64,000 nucleotides of DNA from a virus. Its lineage: Duplodnaviria; Caudoviricetes. The stretch covers positions 96,001 to 160,000 of the IMG/VR virus record IMGVR_UViG_3300031994_000011, one strand, 5' to 3'. Every line of letters begins with the position of its first letter. Within the stretch, counting starts at the first letter, position 1. Position numbers and translations under genes: made by a program. The notes beneath the pieces are model-generated. The model was not told the DNA's origin. It was given only the letters and a program-made list of their open reading frames with translations, and searched no databases. This document shows, in pieces, positions 56,635 to 64,000 of this stretch.

Positions 56635-56698
56635 TTAGCACTCACTTAAAAAGAGTGCTAACAATTTTTTGTTAGCACTCTCTACCAGTGAGTGCTAA
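56635..56698. promoter_or_regulatory. Two perfect CIRCE elements (HrcA operators)
   Basis: TTAGCACTC-N9-GAGTGCTAA at 56635-56661 and 56672-56698. Confidence 0.93.
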
Positions 56699-56704
56699 TA
56701 TTTC

Positions 56705-56788
56705 ATGAAACGTTTCATCATTTCATTATTTTCATGAAACGTTTCATAGAGCATTTCATCATTTCATCGTTTTCATGAAACGTTTCAC
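56705..56788. promoter_or_regulatory. Three LacI/GalR-family operator-like palindromes ATGAAACGTTTCA(T/C)
   Basis: Copies at 56705, 56734, 56775. Confidence 0.65.
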
Positions 56789-56812
56789 GCGGTTACCACC
56801 ATAAAATGAAAA

Positions 56813-57018
56813 TATTACGAAAATGTTACGATTGTAATACTTTTGTAACAATTTTTTTGTACTTTTTGGCCATTTTTTGACCATAAACGCCTTGGATGTA
56901 ATACATCCAAAGCTGAAGGTTGCATTTTTGAGTCAAAAATGCTATAATTAGATGATGGAAGGAGCTTCCAGAGTCTGTAAATGTTACGGAAATGTTACAA
57001 TTGTAACAGAATCGTAAC
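56813..57018. promoter_or_regulatory. WalR/OmpR-family direct-repeat boxes (TGTWAH-N5-TGTWAH)
   Basis: TGTAAT-acttt-TGTAAC 56833-56849 and TGTTAC-ggaaa-TGTTAC 56982-56998; one-mismatch copies at 56813 and 57002. Confidence 0.6.
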
Positions 57019-57110
57019 AATTCCAGAAACTGGTGGATCCGCCCACCAGAGGCAGGCGCCAGCGGCGCCGCCGCTCTCCCGTCTCCCGCCTGGTCCCTAA
57101 TATATACGAA

Positions 57111-57173
57111 GGAGCTGGAGCTGGAAGCTGGAGCTGGAAAACGGAGCTGGAGCTGGAGCTGAAGAAAGGAGCT
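57111..57173 (+). repeat. GGAGCT hexamer repeat tract in 5' leader
   Basis: Seven exact GGAGCT plus variants, ending in the RBS of gene 57180. Confidence 0.85.
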
Positions 57174-57179
57174 ACAACA

Positions 57180-57344
57180 ATGAAGAGCTACGAAATCATC
57201 TACAACAGGGCGCGGAAAGAATTTAATGTCTGGGCGATCGGAAGCAACGGCAACGCGGAGATCGTCAAGCGGGCCACCACAAAAAGGAGTTATGAATTGT
57301 GGCTCATGCGTAAGGGCGTGAGCAATTGGACCGATAGAACGTGA
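57180..57344 (+). CDS. Small early protein (distant paralog of 58867/60168)
   Basis: RBS AAAGGAG; YNRARKEFNVW..IVKRATT. Confidence 0.75.
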   Translation: MKSYEIIYNRARKEFNVWAIGSNGNAEIVKRATTKRSYELWLMRKGVSNWTDRT

Positions 57345-57499
57345 ACCTTGCTCATGGTCCGGCCGAAGGCGACAAGCCTTCGGCCTTTCACAATTTGGAT
57401 GTAATACATCCAAAGTTACTCGTTGACACCCGATGGACATCGGGTGTATAATAAGACCATAGAAAGAGGTCAACCTCTTACCGAAAGGAGATCACCACA

Positions 57500-57655
57500 A
57501 TGAAAACCACCACCACTTACGCCGTTATCACTTGCGACACCTTCCGCACGATCAAGTCCGGCTTCAAGACTTGGGAAGGCGCGTATGAATGGATGCTCGC
57601 GCATGACTGGGGCCAGTACGAACTTGAGGGCGGCCTTTACGTGATCAAGTGCTAA
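57500..57655 (+). CDS. Small early protein, 51 aa
   Basis: Promoter, RBS GAAAGGAG, MKTTTTYAVITCD.. Confidence 0.75.
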   Translation: MKTTTTYAVITCDTFRTIKSGFKTWEGAYEWMLAHDWGQYELEGGLYVIKC

Positions 57656-57831
57656 GCGCGCCGATCACGCAAAATCCGGGCACCGTGAGAAATCACGATG
57701 TCCAAAGTAATTGGATGTAATACATCCAAGTTTTCAGAGCATTTGAGAAAAAAATTTCTTGATATTATTGTCATGCTATAATATAATATAATTGTCCTAA
57801 GGGACAGAATAAAAGAAAGAAGGAAAAAATC

Positions 57832-58035
57832 ATGTTTAATGAACTGAATGTCGAACTCGCCGTTGTTTTTGCCCATTATGCGGAACACAGGGATTCTCGC
57901 GTTGCTTTCCTCGGCAGGAAGGCCGATCATGAAGAACTGACCGATGTGGAAATGACCGAATACATCAACCGCCTTGAGCGTCTATACAAGCAATTTCGCG
58001 CTGAACGCGCCGCCCTCCTCGGGGAAAAGGGCTAA
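57832..58035 (+). CDS. Small early protein
   Basis: ORF track; RBS and terminator. Confidence 0.78.
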   Translation: MFNELNVELAVVFAHYAEHRDSRVAFLGRKADHEELTDVEMTEYINRLERLYKQFRAERAALLGEKG

Positions 58036-58173
58036 GGCCCTTTTTCTTTTTTCACGAAAGTTGGATGTAATACATCCAAAAAGCGACCGTTGACAACCGT
58101 TCCCGGTTGTGGTATAATGGGCGTAGCCCGAGAGGGAAAGGGGAACACCACCACCAAAGGAGGATTATTAAAC

Positions 58174-58419
58174 ATGTCTAAAAACACTTTTGATTGCATT
58201 GACTTCCGCACCGCTCGCCGCCTTGCTGCTCACGGCTGGACTATTTTTTCACGCGATACCGGTGAAGGCTGGCAATGGAACACGGCGGCCTGCTCTGCGC
58301 GTCACATCCGTCGCGGCATGAGCGGACAGCCGGACGAGATTCGCGCTTGTCTCGCGTGGCTTGGGAAGAGCCAACCGAAGGTCTTGACTTTTAAGGCTAA
58401 AAAAGAAAAATGGGAATAA
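58174..58419 (+). CDS. Small early protein
   Basis: RBS AAAGGAGG, MSKNTFDC start. Confidence 0.78.
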   Translation: MSKNTFDCIDFRTARRLAAHGWTIFSRDTGEGWQWNTAACSARHIRRGMSGQPDEIRACLAWLGKSQPKVLTFKAKKEKWE

Positions 58420-58531
58420 TCCCATTTTTCTTTTTTCAATAACTTTGGATGTAATACATCCAAAGTGCTCTCTTGCATAATCCAAAGGATTATGCTAAAA
58501 TAAGACATAATCAGAAAGGAGGTCAGTAAAA

Positions 58532-58705
58532 ATGACCGAACAAGTTTACTACTACATGAATAAAGAACACGGTTACTTGGTTACAGGATGGGAACTTTAC
58601 AGTGACGCATTATCTATGCACTATGATGATATCACAGATCCGACAAGTGTCGAATACCTTAACTTTTCTCTTCACTATACTAAAACAAGGTATGTGGCAA
58701 AGTGA
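58532..58705 (+). CDS. Small early protein, 57 aa
   Basis: RBS GAAAGGAGGT, MTEQVYYY.. Confidence 0.72.
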   Translation: MTEQVYYYMNKEHGYLVTGWELYSDALSMHYDDITDPTSVEYLNFSLHYTKTRYVAK

Positions 58706-58866
58706 TCACAAGTAAAAAGTAAATAAAGACAATGAATAAGAGAGAATACAATAAGTATTCTCTCTTTTATATATACCATAATTGGATGTAATACATCCAA
58801 AAAGAGTAGTTGACAACGTTGTTGTCAACTGTTATAATGGTATCATCAAAGAAGGAGGTAAGTACA

Positions 58867-59001
58867 ATGACTTACACAAAACAGTACAACAAAGTAAGGA
58901 ATGAATGGTGGATATTCAAGGTAACAGCAACAGGTTCCGAACTGATCAAGGTGTTCAAGACTGAAGGTTCCGCAGACAAGTGGATTGCAAAGCATATGTA
59001 A
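58867..59001 (+). CDS. Small early protein, 44 aa (paralog of 60168)
   Basis: RBS AAGGAGGT; KQYNKVRNEWWIFKVT..KVFKTE. Confidence 0.8.
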   Translation: MTYTKQYNKVRNEWWIFKVTATGSELIKVFKTEGSADKWIAKHM

Positions 59002-59140
59002 TACGCAGGCCTTCGGGCCTTGCGAAAGTTGGATGTAATACATCCAAAATGAAAATGATCGAAGGGGTTGACATTCTCTATTGATAGGTGTATAATGAGT
59101 GTAGTTCCAAGAGGGACACAAAAAGAAGGAGGACACAAAA

Positions 59141-59308
59141 ATGTTGAAAGTTTACAATAAGGCCACCTACCGCTTCGGCGAAATCATCGACGGTGAGACC
59201 ACCGAACAGGGTGAGAGCTGGATCCTCGTCCGCTGGGATTGCAGTCCTTTGTATCCCGACTGGATCGACGCGGCCGACGATCGTTACACTATCATTGATC
59301 GCCGTTAA
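59141..59308 (+). CDS. Small early protein, 55 aa
   Basis: RBS AAGGAGG; terminator follows. Confidence 0.75.
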   Translation: MLKVYNKATYRFGEIIDGETTEQGESWILVRWDCSPLYPDWIDAADDRYTIIDRR

Positions 59309-59437
59309 AAAAAGCAAGGCGAAAGCCTTGCTTTTTTCTACGCATAATTGGATGTAATACATCCAAAAAGCGTACTTGCAATCTTGTCTTGTTTGTGCTA
59401 TACTTGTACCATAAAGAAAGCAAGGGAGGCCATCACA

Positions 59438-59740
59438 ATGTTGGAAATGCTCAAGTCTCTGAAAAACTCTGACGGCGCAACTCTGAAAAATTACAAGTCT
59501 GTTTCTTACAAGACTGGTTGGCAAGTAGCCGATCACGGGCTGGAATGCCGCACCGCGGAGGAAGCTGCTGCCGCGATTGACTCTTTCAATGGGAGCTGCG
59601 GGATCTGGTACGAAAACGGCGTGTATTACATCGATCACAGCTTCCGCGTCAAGACGAAAAAGGAAGCTCTTTCCATCGGCCGCGCGCACAATCAAATTTC
59701 CATCTTGAAATGGTCCGATATGTCTCTGGTGTACTGCTAA
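59438..59740 (+). CDS. Early protein, 100 aa
   Basis: RBS GGGAGG; GIWYENGVYYID..GRAHNQISILKW. Confidence 0.8.
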   Translation: MLEMLKSLKNSDGATLKNYKSVSYKTGWQVADHGLECRTAEEAAAAIDSFNGSCGIWYENGVYYIDHSFRVKTKKEALSIGRAHNQISILKWSDMSLVYC

Positions 59741-59866
59741 GGCAGTACCCAGTTTCAGCATTTGGATGTATTACATCCAAAAACTCCTCTTGACTTTATG
59801 TGGTGGTTGTAGTATTATATACTTGTCCGAAGGGAAAAAACAGATTTTCAAGGAGGTTTATTAACT

Positions 59867-60067
59867 ATGTCTTATTCTTACGAACTGACCGCCCGTTTCC
59901 CCGTCATGGTCCGCGTGTACACCAGCGCCGGCGAGATCGTCGAACATTGCGCGCGCTCTCTCCGCGCCGCGCATGGGTGGTTTGCGCATTGCGCGGCCGA
60001 AGAATACTTTGAAGGACACCCCGTGCGGGTGGAATATGAATTTTACGAAGGGTACAGGTGGGGATAA
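59867..60067 (+). CDS. Small early protein
   Basis: RBS AAGGAGGT; ORF track. Confidence 0.75.
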   Translation: MSYSYELTARFPVMVRVYTSAGEIVEHCARSLRAAHGWFAHCAAEEYFEGHPVRVEYEFYEGYRWG

Positions 60068-60167
60068 CCCACCTGTTGTTTTTTGGATGTAATACATCCA
60101 AAAAGGACTCTTGACTGTATTTCCCCTTTATGCTATAATGATACCATCAAAGAAGGAGGTAACAGCA

Positions 60168-60302
60168 ATGAGGTATGTGAAGCAGTTTAACAAGGCGCGC
60201 AAGGAATGGTGGATTTTCCGCGTGACGATGGACGGCGCCGAACTGACGAAGGTTTTTAAGACGGAAAAAGCTGCCGACAGCTGGATCCGCAAAAACACTT
60301 AA
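60168..60302 (+). CDS. Small early protein, 44 aa (paralog of 58867)
   Basis: KQFNKARKEWWIFRVT..KVFKTE; near-identical leader. Confidence 0.8.
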   Translation: MRYVKQFNKARKEWWIFRVTMDGAELTKVFKTEKAADSWIRKNT

Positions 60303-60545
60303 GAGCTGGGCGGTATAACCGCCCAATTTCATTTTATTTTTGTTTTAATGATATTAAAAAAATTGTATATATAAAAATTATAAAATAAAACCCCACTCAA
60401 TTTCATTTTTAAATATAATAAAAATTTTCAAAAATGAAAATTGGATGTAATACATCCAAAACCACCCCTTGACTTTATAGACCGGTTATGCTATTATATA
60501 CTTGTCCGAAGGGACAAGAGATAAAAAAGAAAGAAGGACACAAAA

Positions 60546-60824
60546 ATGAAGAAATCTGTTAACGGTCACAATTACGCGCAGGCGAAAGAAATCATCTATG
60601 AAGACGGACGGCGTGAGCTGGTGAGCTACACCACAACCGTGATCGAAATCACGGCGGACGGCTGGATGACCGTACACGGGCTGTACAGCCGCACTACGAT
60701 CAAACACATCGGGTGGTTTATGCGTGAGATCGGCCTTACGTACCAACACGCGAAAAGAGCATACGAACGGCGCGACATTGAACAATTCAACGTTTACACC
60801 GGGGAGGTGAAGGAGGTGGCGTAA
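60546..60824 (+). CDS. Early protein, 92 aa
   Basis: LVSYTTTV..GLYSRTTIKHIGWF; promoter and terminator. Confidence 0.8.
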   Translation: MKKSVNGHNYAQAKEIIYEDGRRELVSYTTTVIEITADGWMTVHGLYSRTTIKHIGWFMREIGLTYQHAKRAYERRDIEQFNVYTGEVKEVA

Positions 60825-60948
60825 GCCACCTCTTTTTTTCATCTTCTAATTGGATGTAATACATCCAAAACGTCCACTTGCTTTTTCAGGCATTCTGTGG
60901 TATACTTATATCATCAAGTGAGGGGTTGATCCCCAGAGGGAGGCCACT

Positions 60949-61095
60949 ATGTGGTATGTTTGTGATGAGTTCGGGTTCGCGTGGAGCAAGGGCATAGAAA
61001 CTCTTGAGGAGGCGCAGCTGCAGCTGGAAGAGCTGCGCGCCGATGCCCGCAAAAAGGGCTGGGACTGGGGCTTTGAGATTGAAAAGCGGGGCTGA
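60949..61095 (+). CDS. Small early protein, 48 aa
   Basis: RBS GGGAGG; terminator overlaps stop. Confidence 0.72.
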   Translation: MWYVCDEFGFAWSKGIETLEEAQLQLEELRADARKKGWDWGFEIEKRG

Positions 61096-61226
61096 CCCGC
61101 TTTTCTTTTTATCACGCAGATTGGATGTAATACATCCAAAATGAATAGTTGACTTTCTTAAGATACTATGATATACTTATACCATCAAGTGAAGGACAAC
61201 ACTTAAAAACCAGAGAGGAAACTACA

Positions 61227-61400
61227 ATGTATCAGATTGTCAGGGTTTATGATGATGGCGCCACCGCAGCAGAGACCGCCCCTTCCTTCGTTTCCGCGCT
61301 GACCGCTTGCACGATCTACCTTGAGGATCCGAGCTGCATCGCAATAAAAATCAAGGATCTCCGGGACAACAAAACCGTCATGGAATACTGGGCGGATTAA
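61227..61400 (+). CDS. Small early protein
   Basis: RBS GAGGA; ORF track. Confidence 0.75.
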   Translation: MYQIVRVYDDGATAAETAPSFVSALTACTIYLEDPSCIAIKIKDLRDNKTVMEYWAD

Positions 61401-61514
61401 CCGCCCTTTTCTCGTTTGGATGTAATACATCCAAAATCCGAGATTGACTTTTCTATGATTATATGTTATCATATACTTGTCCGAAGGGATAACAAATGAA
61501 AGGGGATTGAAACT

Positions 61515-61754
61515 ATGTGGCTTTTCTACTCTTACACTGATGGCTATATTCCTATGGGATCTGATGGACAAATGAAAGTGCCTTCTTCTATGCGTTCAAT
61601 GAAAAGCATCCAGAAGCTGGCAACGGCCTTCCTCGGCAAGCGAGCTGGGAGCGTGTACCTCATGACCAGCTGGACGCAGGCGATGAGCGAGCTGGGACCG
61701 CGCGCGTTTGAAGAATATATCTTTCGCAATGGAAAGAAGGTTGCTCACTCATGA
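61515..61754 (+). CDS. Small early protein
   Basis: ORF track; terminator overlaps stop. Confidence 0.75.
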   Translation: MWLFYSYTDGYIPMGSDGQMKVPSSMRSMKSIQKLATAFLGKRAGSVYLMTSWTQAMSELGPRAFEEYIFRNGKKVAHS

Positions 61755-62110
61755 GCAACCTTTCTTTTTTAGTTAATATTGGATGTATTACATCCAAAAT
61801 ACCTTATTGACTTATTTCATTTTTCATGCTATACTATATTTGTCGAAAGGAAGAAAGGAGAGATGAAAAAATGACTCCCCCGCATTAAAGTAAGCCAGCG
61901 CATAAGATGCTTTATGCGGCGGCACTATTAAACGGAGAGCATCCTCCCGTTCCAGAAAGTGGCGGAGCTGGAGCGATTGAGCCAAACTGGACGATCAGCG
62001 CAATCGTCCAGTTTATTTATATTGGATGTATTACATCCAAAAACGACCGTTGACTTTCTCACCCCTTTATGGTATACTTAAACCATCAAAGGAAAGGAAG
62101 GTAACAAACT

Positions 62111-62437
62111 ATGACGGAAAATATGACCTATCATTGCAGGGTTGAACGTGCTGACCGCGTGAACTGGATTATCAATGAAATCGGTTTGGGGCAGATTGTC
62201 AAGGAAAAGTATGGCAACATCAACGGCAAAGCTGCAACCTACACTTGCATCACCGATACTGGCGTGACCATCATCAAGACGGGCGACAAGAAAGCAATCA
62301 TCACTATGTATATCACCACCGCGCGGGAGCTGGTAGCTGTATACGGCGGGCAGAAAAAAATCCCTCTCGCCCTTCGGAAAAAGGTTGACCACAATCAGAG
62401 CAAATACATCAGGAACGGGAAAACAGTTTGGGCCTAA
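62111..62437 (+). CDS. Early protein, 108 aa
   Basis: MTYHCRVERADR..ITDTGV..IITMY; RelE/toxin-like fold possible but unverified. Confidence 0.78.
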   Translation: MTENMTYHCRVERADRVNWIINEIGLGQIVKEKYGNINGKAATYTCITDTGVTIIKTGDKKAIITMYITTARELVAVYGGQKKIPLALRKKVDHNQSKYIRNGKTVWA

Positions 62438-62533
62438 CGGCCCAAATTTTATTTGGATGTAATACATCCAAAAACCCCTCTTGCATTTCTCATAAAAATA
62501 TGATATTATATAACCATGAAAGGGGTGTGTGAA

Positions 62534-62740
62534 ATGACTACAACGTGGCACTTTGAAGTATGGGGCGAGGACAGCGACCTTTTTGGTGAGCAGTTCTTTG
62601 TAGAGGTCGAAGGCAACCTTGACACGGCGAAGGCGAGGGCTATGGCGATCGCGCAAGAAAATTTTCCCGGCGAGCTGCTGAAATGCTGGGGACGTGTTTC
62701 TAAGCTGACAGCTGAAATGGCTGGATATGATACCTACTAA
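62534..62740 (+). CDS. Small early protein
   Basis: GEQFFVE..AEMAGYDTY; terminator follows. Confidence 0.75.
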   Translation: MTTTWHFEVWGEDSDLFGEQFFVEVEGNLDTAKARAMAIAQENFPGELLKCWGRVSKLTAEMAGYDTY

Positions 62741-62867
62741 GGCGCGAAAGCGCCTTTTAGAGTTTGGATGTATTACATCCAAATTCTCTTCTTGCATAAA
62801 TCCACCTTCTATGTTATAATGTTTGTGAAAAGAGGAAGGATACCTCACAAACCAGAAAGGCACTACT

Positions 62868-63305
62868 ATGACTATTTGGTTCGATATGGATGGCACAATT
62901 GCGAATCTGTACGCTGTTGAAGGCTGGCTTGACTATCTCATTAACGAAAATGTTTATCCTTATGCGAAAGCTGAAACCATGCTTAATTTTTCTTCCTTCG
63001 CAAAGCTGCTGAACAAGCTCCAGAAAAAGGGCTACAAAATTGGCATTATCTCGTGGATGAGCAAATGCGGCTCTGAAAACTATAATCTCGCCGTTGAGAC
63101 CGCAAAACGCGCTTGGCTCGCTCGGCACCTTCCTTCGGTTGAATGGGACGAAATTAAAATTGTCCGTTATGGCACCGATAAATACATCACTTGTGGCGGC
63201 GGCATTCTGTTCGATGATGAACAGGGAAACCGTGATGGTTGGAAGGATAGAGCATATGAACCTTGCAAAATTATGGAAGTATTAAAAGAACTGCTTAACA
63301 GTTAA
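62868..63305 (+). CDS. HAD-superfamily phosphatase / 5'(3')-nucleotidase-like
   Basis: FDMDGT motif I, IIS motif II, K, LFDD motif IV. Confidence 0.82.
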   Translation: MTIWFDMDGTIANLYAVEGWLDYLINENVYPYAKAETMLNFSSFAKLLNKLQKKGYKIGIISWMSKCGSENYNLAVETAKRAWLARHLPSVEWDEIKIVRYGTDKYITCGGGILFDDEQGNRDGWKDRAYEPCKIMEVLKELLNS

Positions 63306-63447
63306 TGCAATGAGCGCGGCGAGCGCTCCCGTATTGGATGTAATACATCCAAATCACATTTCAAAAAAAGACTTGACTTTTCCTTTTTACGTGATAAAAT
63401 ATATATGAAAGCGGAAGGAAAACCGCCCAAACCAGAAAGGTTATGAA

Positions 63448-64000
63448 ATGGCCAAAACTCTCAAGTTCCTTGTAGTTGATACTGAAACCGCCACCCTGCC
63501 CATGTGCTCTGAAATTGCGTATGATGCTGAAAGCAAGAAAAAGCTCGCAATCGCTAAGCCCCTCATTTATGATATTGGCTGGAACATCACTAACCGCAAG
63601 GGCGAAATTCTCGGTCATAAGCAGTTCCTCATCGCAGAGACTTTCTGTGTTCCTCAGGTTTTTAATACTGCCTATTATGCAGAGAAGCGGCCCATCTATC
63701 TGAAAATGCTTGAACGTGGTGAAACCGTCATTAAAACTTGGGACGAAGTTATGACTATCTTCCTTCAAGACATGCGGTCCGTTGATGCCGTGGGCGCGTT
63801 TAATTCCATGTTTGATTTTAAGAAGGCTATCCCCTTCACCGAACTGTATATCCGCAATCTATATAGCCCCCGTTATAGCGATTGGGAAAAAATTCAGTAT
63901 GATTCTTGTATGAGAATTTTGAGCAACAACAGACCCGAAAGAAACCCGAATTTTGATGCCGATAATTTTTCCTTCCGTGGCGAAAGCTTCCCCCTGTTCG
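63448..64000 (+). CDS. DEDD (DnaQ-like) 3'-5' exonuclease, truncated by window end
   Basis: LVVDTET ExoI, IYDIGW, AFNSMFD ExoII. Confidence 0.85.
   Translation, partial: MAKTLKFLVVDTETATLPMCSEIAYDAESKKKLAIAKPLIYDIGWNITNRKGEILGHKQFLIAETFCVPQVFNTAYYAEKRPIYLKMLERGETVIKTWDEVMTIFLQDMRSVDAVGAFNSMFDFKKAIPFTELYIRNLYSPRYSDWEKIQYDSCMRILSNNRPERNPNFDADNFSFRGESFPLF

Follow-up and report, generated by a model that had tools for sequence, protein, structure and literature searches.

The stretch of DNA considered here (the window; 64,000 bp) corresponds to bases 96,001 to 160,000 of the 171,958-bp phage record IMGVR_UViG_3300031994_000011, which has a 127-bp terminal overlap and is referred to below as G000. 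The right end of the window is occupied by an array of small early genes separated by copies of an almost invariant 19-bp palindrome, and it is this element that we describe. A sequence-only reading of the window reported 19 copies at 56892–63352 and none in the first 56 kb, and both points are confirmed: TTGGATGTAWTACATCCAA has 19 exact matches in this interval and none in the rest of the window, and does not occur in 100 dinucleotide-preserving shuffles of the window. The array does not stop where that reading ended it, however, and there are 19 further copies beyond the one at 63334–63352. The whole genome carries 38 palindromes (33 exact and five with one mismatch), all within a single block of ~19.5 kb that extends from genome coordinate 152,892 across the end of the record to 425.

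The G000 copies are sharply bimodal, in that sites are either perfect or not there at all: outside the block, matches with up to five mismatches number 45, against about 50 in shuffled sequence, and only one site has three or fewer. The palindrome has the consensus TTRGATGT-NWN-ACATCYAA, with an information content of ~2 bits at 18 of its 19 positions (all but the centre), exceeding that of the adjacent -35 and -10 boxes. The central base is A or T and favours neither strand (15 to 10 for G000, 69 to 62 for related phages).

The early block of G000 reads in the standard code and is flanked on both sides by minus-strand genes with many in-frame TAG codons, including that of a 6244-residue tape measure protein. 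Its G+C content is 0.41, compared with 0.33 for the remaining genome. Within the window, G+C rises from ~0.30 in the TAG-recoded late region (1–56600) to ~0.44 in the standard-code early array (56900–64000), a contrast that is weaker in the related genomes G003, G004 and G006, and absent in G005.

Module anatomy

The typical unit consists of a terminator-like hairpin, the palindrome, AA followed by seven variable bases, TTGACw, 17 bp, TATAaT, a leader, a Shine-Dalgarno sequence, and one small open reading frame (ORF). The sequence-only reading had proposed a promoter, a ribosome-binding site and usually one small gene for each copy, and the layout is as it described, except that the module at 61779–62022 has no ORF of at least 30 amino acids (aa). 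Two to six ORFs are present in some units of the array's right half. A terminator-like hairpin ends 1–20 bp upstream of the palindrome at 20 of the 38 G000 copies, and at between 14 of 26 and 25 of 30 copies in the relatives. The -35 and -10 boxes in the window are 16–18 bp apart, usually with an extended -10 TG (the 17-bp spacers usually ending in TRTGn). Nearly all of the early proteins encoded in the array, which the sequence-only reading put forward as candidate anti-defence proteins, belong to no known family.

The features of the array within the window are listed below. For each palindrome the gap to the -35 box, the -35 box, the spacer and the -10 box are given in that order; cluster numbers refer to families of early proteins from six arrays, and L099, L119 and L141 are contigs from near relatives.

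56892–56910, palindrome copy 1, at the left array edge; N9, TTGCAT, N17, TATAAT
57395–57413, palindrome copy 2; N9, TTGACA, N18, TATAAT; 51-aa ORF
57711–57729, palindrome copy 3; N29, TTGATA, N17, TATAAT; 67-aa ORF; module missing in L099, with this palindrome at the junction
58061–58079, palindrome copy 4; N10, TTGACA, N17, TATAAT
58445–58463, palindrome copy 5; N9, TTGCAT, N17, TAAAAT; 57-aa ORF (cluster 5, backbone)
58782–58800, palindrome copy 6; N9, TTGACA, N17, TATAAT; 44-aa ORF paralogous to the ORF of module 60083
59029–59047, palindrome copy 7; N20, TTGACA, N17, TATAAT; 55-aa ORF; module missing in L141 and L119
59348–59366, palindrome copy 8; N9, TTGCAA, N17, TATACT; 100-aa ORF (cluster 6, backbone)
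59762–59780, palindrome copy 9; N9, TTGACT, N17, TATTAT; 66-aa ORF; module missing in L099
60083–60101, palindrome copy 10; N9, TTGACT, N17, TATAAT
60441–60459, palindrome copy 11, heading the DUF8033 module; N9, TTGACT, N17, TATTAT
60546–60824, plus strand, gene for a 92-aa DUF8033 (PF26096) protein
60850–60868, palindrome copy 12; N9, TTGCTT, N17, TATACT
61121–61139, palindrome copy 13; N9, TTGACT, N17, TATACT
61416–61434, palindrome copy 14; N9, TTGACT, N17, TATCAT; 79-aa ORF (cluster 7, backbone)
61779–61797, palindrome copy 15; N9, TTGACT, N17, TATACT; no ORF of at least 30 aa in the module
62022–62040, palindrome copy 16; N9, TTGACT, N17, TATACT; 108-aa ORF (cluster 8, backbone)
62453–62471, palindrome copy 17; N9, TTGCAT, N17, TATTAT
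62764–62782, palindrome copy 18; N9, TTGCAT, N17, TATAAT; 145-aa NT5C/HAD-like deoxyribonucleotidase
63334–63352, palindrome copy 19; N20, TTGACT, N16, TAAAAT; 328-aa phrog_20187 protein, running off the window end

The palindrome is phased with early promoters

Thirty-five of the 38 G000 copies are associated with a promoter, and the same holds in five related phages. The promoters are near-consensus sigma-A promoters (TTGACw, N17, TRTGnTATAaT) that match 9–12 of 12 consensus positions. Among the 19 window copies, the gap between palindrome and -35 box is 9 bp in 15 cases, 10 bp in one, 20 bp in two and 29 bp in one; gaps of mostly 9–10 bp and twice about 20 bp had been reported, which accounts for all copies but that at 57711, with its gap of 29 bp. 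Over all six phage arrays, counting only good promoters with a downstream ribosome-binding site and start codon, there are 154 gaps of 8–10 bp (8 bp, 10; 9 bp, 140; 10 bp, 4), eight of 18–21 bp, three of 29–30 bp and two of 39–40 bp, with nothing between these classes. The only two exceptions have a gap of 23 bp, and at these an extra right half-site sits exactly 9 bp from the -35 box.

The 9-bp spacer is constant in length and almost unconserved in sequence, which argues that the spacing is under selection and does not merely reflect shared ancestry. Because the gap classes fall at ~9, ~20, ~29 and ~40 bp, the site stays on one face of the helix, with its centre near -54, -64, -74 or -84 (taking the -10 box as -12 to -7). 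At sites displaced by one turn, A-tracts occupy the extra gap. In three orthologous modules (G003 9336, G004 10080 and G006 17668, in array coordinates) the main palindrome lies 20–21 bp from the -35 box, and a second, different palindrome (TGTATAC-A-GTATACA) sits in the gap beside the box.

Both orientations of the site are used. The copy at genome coordinate 168690 has promoters on both strands, at 9 bp (minus) and 18 bp (plus), that at 161880 lies between divergent promoters at 39 and 40 bp, and the copy at 425 drives a minus-strand gene; divergent promoters are served there too.

Related arrays and half-site variation

A blastn search of the array against public phage records gave no match. 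Scanning IMG/VR identified TTRGATGTAWTACATCYAA in 33 DNA stretches from 19 viral contigs, and in metagenome DNA the G-form palindrome by itself accounts for 73 stretches. Five large related records (G001 and G003–G006) contain 26–40 copies each, confined in every record to one block of 14–22 kb, and in all at least seven related phage records have copy numbers in this range, likewise in a single block.

These arrays differ at palindrome position 3 and its mirror, which are G/C in all 76 G000 half-sites, A/T in every half-site of G003, G004 and G005, and mixed in G001 and G006; G005 and G006 are moreover less constrained at the three bases of the centre. Strong selection, recombinational homogenisation, or both may account for the near-perfect uniformity of the 19-mer in each genome. 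In G006 the half-site pairs (GG 14, AA 6, AG 13, GA 6) occur as expected under independence, with no compensatory covariation, so that stem pairing is not preserved and 17–19 of 40 sites have mismatched halves. The blocks of G and A forms in G001 suggested that hybrid sites might be crossover products, a proposal with which the orientation of the hybrids at the block boundary does not fit.

This variation bears on the possibility that the palindrome acts as a nucleic-acid structure, either a promoter of cruciform or hairpin form that a phage RNA polymerase would use, in the manner of N4, or an insulating or terminating hairpin between modules. It is a perfect inverted repeat able to form an 8-bp stem with a 3-nt loop, and is always placed after a terminator and before the following promoter. 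However, the hairpin is weak (-6 kcal/mol, or -4.6 kcal/mol for the A variant), is not followed by a T-run, and lies downstream of separate and stronger terminators. Neither of the features expected of N4-type hairpin promoters, compensatory changes in the stem and a strand-specific loop, is seen at these sites, and the loop base has no strand bias. Sigma-70 region 2 was not found in the genome, and the largest ORF, of 6244 aa, encodes the tape measure protein and not a virion polymerase; a search for a T7-type RNA polymerase (PF00940) had no match in the genome, although the control search also matched nothing. The independent half-sites, the weak hairpin and the missing T-run together argue against a structural role, which we consider most improbable, and for recognition of two half-sites by a dimer.

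Module turnover and rearrangement breakpoints

Comparing cassette order in related phages reveals a conserved backbone with heavy turnover of modules. Clustering of the early proteins of the six arrays gives a common order 5-6-4-7-(14-15)-8-(10)-9, followed by clusters 1, 2 and 3, and about half of the modules are genome-specific. Clusters 9, 16, 19 and 30 are at differing positions among the arrays, and cluster 20, a plus-strand family in G003 and G004, appears in G006 on the opposite (minus) strand, at the end of the array. Relocation without change of orientation is illustrated by the order 26|36|37|27 in G004 and 26|27|37|36 in G006, where homology of the swapped modules 36 and 37 begins at the upstream palindrome (-2 and -14 bp) and ends slightly beyond the downstream one (+14 and +19 bp).

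Two of the relatives, G003 and G004, are ~80% identical and differ by one extra module, at which the flanking high-scoring segment pairs (HSPs) overlap solely within the 19 bp, and by one replaced module with bounds at +14 and -4 bp from the flanking palindromes. Thirteen of the 32 HSP ends between these genomes are within 25 bp of a palindrome, compared with ~12% expected.

Contigs closer to G000 reveal six events, four of which join at the palindrome (three of them clean gains or losses of a module), one at another repeat and one at neither. L099 (a 4.5-kb contig with 84–91% identity) lacks two G000 modules, at window positions 57711–58061 and 59762–60083, with flanking alignments whose overlap is precisely the palindrome (19 bp) at the first and the palindrome with 15 further bp (a 35-bp HSP overlap) at the second. 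L141 and L119 (~95% identity) lack the module at 59029, with a junction that is the palindrome to within 2 bp. Of two events in L138, one breaks at the edge of a palindrome and the other is a deletion that joins two copies of a repeated 5' leader, indicating that leaders are also substrates for recombination, and in L129 a replacement is confined to the coding part of a module. The gene list of the 97%-identical P0121 suggests a further module indel, with a 93-aa module missing.

Three G000 modules are on the minus strand. All three have a promoter-less palindrome at the 3' (convergent) end and, at the 5' (divergent) end, a single palindrome held in common with the neighbouring plus-strand promoter. 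This pattern is expected from inversion by crossover inside two flanking palindromes, and would not be left by independent insertion of units bringing their own operators.

These events raise the possibility that the palindrome is a dedicated recombination site, at which a phage recombinase or nuclease that has escaped recognition would excise and integrate promoter-gene-terminator cassettes as an integrase-free counterpart of an integron, with the fixed promoter distance arising simply because palindrome and promoter travel together. The junctions falling exactly at the 19 bp, the permutation of modules 36 and 37 with orientation kept, the presence of one palindrome at every module boundary (promoter-less convergent junctions included), and the extreme uniformity of the 19-mer in each genome without degenerate copies are all in keeping with this. 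Against it, the best match to a tyrosine recombinase (PF00589; at 63.4 kb in the genome) scores 11.8 bits for a cut-off of 27.1, and neither a serine recombinase (PF00239) nor a Y1 (RAYT) transposase (PF01797) has a match in the genome, which sets the array apart from REP/RAYT systems. Furthermore, a spacer conserved in length without sequence, and alternative gaps of whole helical turns, point to selection on promoter geometry, and the leader repeats recombine too, as they would by general homologous recombination. A 19-bp repeat together with ~15 bp of similar sequence may also suffice for phage recombination without a dedicated system, and we regard such a system as unlikely.

A probable operator and preferred crossover point

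The reading that we favour, with a probability of roughly 60%, is that the palindrome is the operator of one dimeric DNA-binding protein at the early promoters and, in addition, a preferred crossover point for homologous recombination. A dimeric, sequence-specific protein would bind the palindrome immediately ahead of the early promoters, which are of host type (sigma-A with extended -10), keeping to a single helical face, and would contact RNA polymerase, probably through the alpha C-terminal domain, so that a single binder would control the whole early set of 30–40 single-gene transcription units together. The palindrome, adjoining AA and -35 box constitute the longest perfect repeat in the array, and could therefore serve as the preferred point of crossover for ordinary homologous recombination, which would delete, insert, swap and invert whole promoter-gene-terminator modules and so give the region its cassette-like plasticity. 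That no recombinase was found, that crossover also occurs at leaders, and that every module has a promoter favour general homologous recombination over an integron-like process.

The sequence-only reading had offered an operator and an integron-like recombination junction as alternatives, and these need not be exclusive. The first is the likely function: the phased gaps, the use of both orientations and the independent half-sites make a strong geometric case for it, the binder itself and the sign of its regulation being putative. The second is a demonstrated evolutionary consequence, in that the palindrome is where indels, swaps and inverted modules have their junctions, with the integron-like part unsupported given the lack of a recombinase or Y1 transposase match, the promoter and terminator belonging to each module, and the recombination at leaders.

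As to the sign of regulation, the near-consensus promoters give a slight lean toward shut-off of already strong early promoters over their activation. Shut-off might proceed by trapping of the polymerase, as with phi29 p4 at A2c, or by displacement of the alpha subunit.

Several observations weigh against this operator and crossover reading. Promoters so close to consensus appear not to need an activator, yet a site upstream of the -35 box is atypical for a repressor, and three G000 copies stand at convergent junctions without any promoter. With 33 of 38 copies near-perfect and no degenerate sites, the set is unusual for a transcription-factor regulon, and its uniformity could instead stem from recombinational homogenisation, or from a nuclease or recombinase that recognises the site. 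The breakpoints are open to similar reservations: two of the six near-relative events are away from the palindrome, gene-sized events must break in short intergenic DNA in any case, and the palindrome and promoter are the best-conserved islands, toward which alignment ends will be biased. Finally, the most plausible family of binding proteins (cluster 1; see below) has only a marginal match beside the array in G005, though this genome has 26 palindromes.

Candidate binding proteins

The best candidates for the binder, which is probably phage-encoded, are two or three paralogous proteins encoded inside the array and predicted to consist of a coiled helix and a winged helix. In G000 these are the three cluster 1 paralogs at genome coordinates 160985–161314, 163966–164403 and 167890–168228, and two or three paralogs are similarly inside the arrays of G001, G003, G004 and G006. 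The predicted model (pLDDT, a per-residue confidence score, 92.7) shows a long helix and, at the C terminus, a winged helix, which matches the DNA-binding domains of PerR, Fur, MarR, IclR, ArsR and PadR, and also cullin WHB, with Z scores of 7–9.4 and root-mean-square deviations of 1.5–2.5 Å over 55–74 residues. A match in fold does not by itself establish function, and a sequence profile of the family matched nothing in the PDB below E=0.1.

Only two small early proteins are common to all five complete or near-complete genomes compared, the 92-aa DUF8033 protein and a 135-aa family (cluster 2). DUF8033 gives a confident model (pLDDT 89) without a fold match in the PDB, and this supports it as a binder neither way. 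Paralogs of the cluster 2 type are at genome coordinates 161424–161759 (minus strand), 162327–162734 (plus) and 170123–170485 (plus), and have a globular head of ~65 aa with a long tail rich in Lys, Glu and Ala. This Lys/Glu-tailed family is present in every related array and corresponds to no known family; its members look like histone-like or nucleoid-binding proteins.

Two Cro/CI-type HTH_3 proteins (genome 8437–8652 and 75413–75592) are lesser candidates that were set aside, being outside the array and not found in all relatives (tblastn, E<1e-4). Each is part of a three-gene module present twice in the genome (8437–9193 and 75413–76165) that encodes a small HTH_3 protein, a protein of ~62 aa, and one of 125–144 aa.

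The palindrome might instead be the operator of a host global regulator, exploited for early timing or titrated as a decoy. The phage does carry host operators, as two perfect CIRCE (HrcA operator) elements, TTAGCACTC-N9-GAGTGCTAA, occupy the non-coding gap that immediately precedes the array (56636–56698), separated from each other by 10 bp and with no chaperone gene close by; moreover the palindrome is kept across divergent phages, for which a universally conserved phage DNA-binding protein has not been identified. However, an exact scan of one genome for each of 185,579 prokaryote species gave seven single matches against ~4 by chance, although operators are usually degenerate, which limits an exact-match scan, and the host of the phage is not identified. 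The flanks of the seven matches look coding rather than promoter-proximal, and the 13-mer core of the palindrome was not found in the literature searched. Whole arrays of either the G or the A variant are also explained more easily by co-evolution with a phage protein, and a host regulator seems quite doubtful.

A more elaborate form of the favoured reading would give the palindrome two active roles, as operator of a phage winged-helix master regulator and as an exchange site actively used for cassettes between co-infecting phages. We think this rather unlikely; if true, the palindrome would be an integrase-free, self-regulating platform for the capture of host-takeover and anti-defence genes in stop-codon-recoded rumen phages.

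Relation to known systems

The sequence-only reading compared the array with the promoter-early stem-loop (PeSL) cassettes of T4-type phages (Arbiol et al. 2010, PMC2839356; Comeau et al. 2014, PMC4122927), and the analogy is an apt one. Both comprise dozens of repeated cassettes with strong host-type early promoters beside small ORFan genes in a plastic region, and in both the indels and replacements between related phages join at cassettes. The PeSL stem-loop, however, is a G/C-rich terminator of variable sequence and variable position in or around the promoter (PMC2839356), whereas here an invariant 19-bp palindrome is separate from the terminators and always upstream of the -35 box at whole helical turns. 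The weak hairpin and phased position of the palindrome are not those of an element that serves as its own terminator or attenuator at varying positions. A further trait of the PeSL system is the mini-circle produced when neighbouring cassettes recombine. The hosts also differ, the sigma-A promoters with extended -10 and the strong Shine-Dalgarno sequences suggesting a Gram-positive-like host for the phages described here.

A second group of relatives in organization is provided by multi-operator systems, including the P1 C1 operators, the conserved inverted repeats of phiC31, and the OB sites of RK2 KorB. In these regulons a short, near-identical site is repeated 12 to more than 30 times per element and a single protein acts over many units; G000 and its five relatives likewise have the same operator-type site at many promoters of one element. 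The stoperators of mycobacteriophage Cluster A, which also belong to this group, are asymmetric, monomer-bound and orientation-dependent, and block elongation (PMC6550527, PMC9283540). The element described here is by contrast a perfect palindrome close to the promoter, in helical phase with it and independent of orientation, and no integrase turned up in the genome.

The placement of the site resembles that of upstream regulators that contact the alpha subunit of RNA polymerase from one face of the helix. Examples are Ogr of P2 and 186 (B sites near -55), CAP at class I sites, and phi29 p4. In all of these a dyad site is centred at ~-54/-55 or integral turns upstream, and regulator and polymerase can occupy the DNA together; displacement of the palindrome upstream of the -35 box is solely by integral helical turns, as at class I sites. 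The promoters that those proteins activate have weak -35 boxes, whereas here the -35 and extended -10 are near-consensus and the intrinsic weakness typical of class I targets is not seen, so that repression by over-stabilisation, as by p4 at A2c, would be at least as likely as activation. This comparison is one of geometry and not of sequence or family.

Integrons share with the array a linear series of small, unrelated and exchangeable genes between palindromic sites. They differ in having an integrase, of which none was found here, in their variable attC sites as opposed to identical perfect palindromes, and in their promoter-less cassettes under one common promoter, where each module described here has its own promoter and terminator.

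The array is thus a real feature, conserved across a clade of phages, that combines a multi-operator regulon with regulatory cassettes of the PeSL type. With it the PeSL idea, developed for T4-like phages that infect Gram-negative hosts, reaches an unrelated phage group whose expression signals are of Gram-positive type, and one short site would both coordinate ~38 promoters and shape the evolution of the region. The palindrome also provides a sequence handle for the complete early host-takeover gene set (30–40 mostly ORFan microproteins per genome, with high turnover) of an uncultivated clade of large TAG-recoded rumen phages, and an invariant 19-mer of fixed geometry is well suited to pull-down of its binder and to synthetic control of promoters.

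Other features of the array

The ORF-less module at 61779–62022 retains a full palindrome, promoter and terminator, and its 181-nt transcript region folds at -56.9 kcal/mol (z = -3.4). It matches no Rfam family, and an Rfam search of the array gave sub-threshold matches only; the cargo of this module may be a small RNA. The phrog_20187 protein that runs off the right end of the window has a 252-aa paralog, which weakly matches an exonuclease subunit of DNA polymerase.

The stretch that separates the late operon from the first palindrome (window 56700–57030) is densely populated by other repeats, with three copies of ATGAAACGTTTCAT and several of GTTAC/GTAAC type, and could be a control region or a replication origin. 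The first module has a long leader with a tandem GGAGCTGGAGCTGGA repeat (57100–57180) upstream of a 54-aa ORF. About half of the early leaders share a motif in which a small hairpin with an AAGGA loop precedes AAACCAGAAAGG; two leaders of this kind are joined by the L138 deletion, and the motif is present in many modules within genome coordinates 152001–171958, for example at window 63405–63440.

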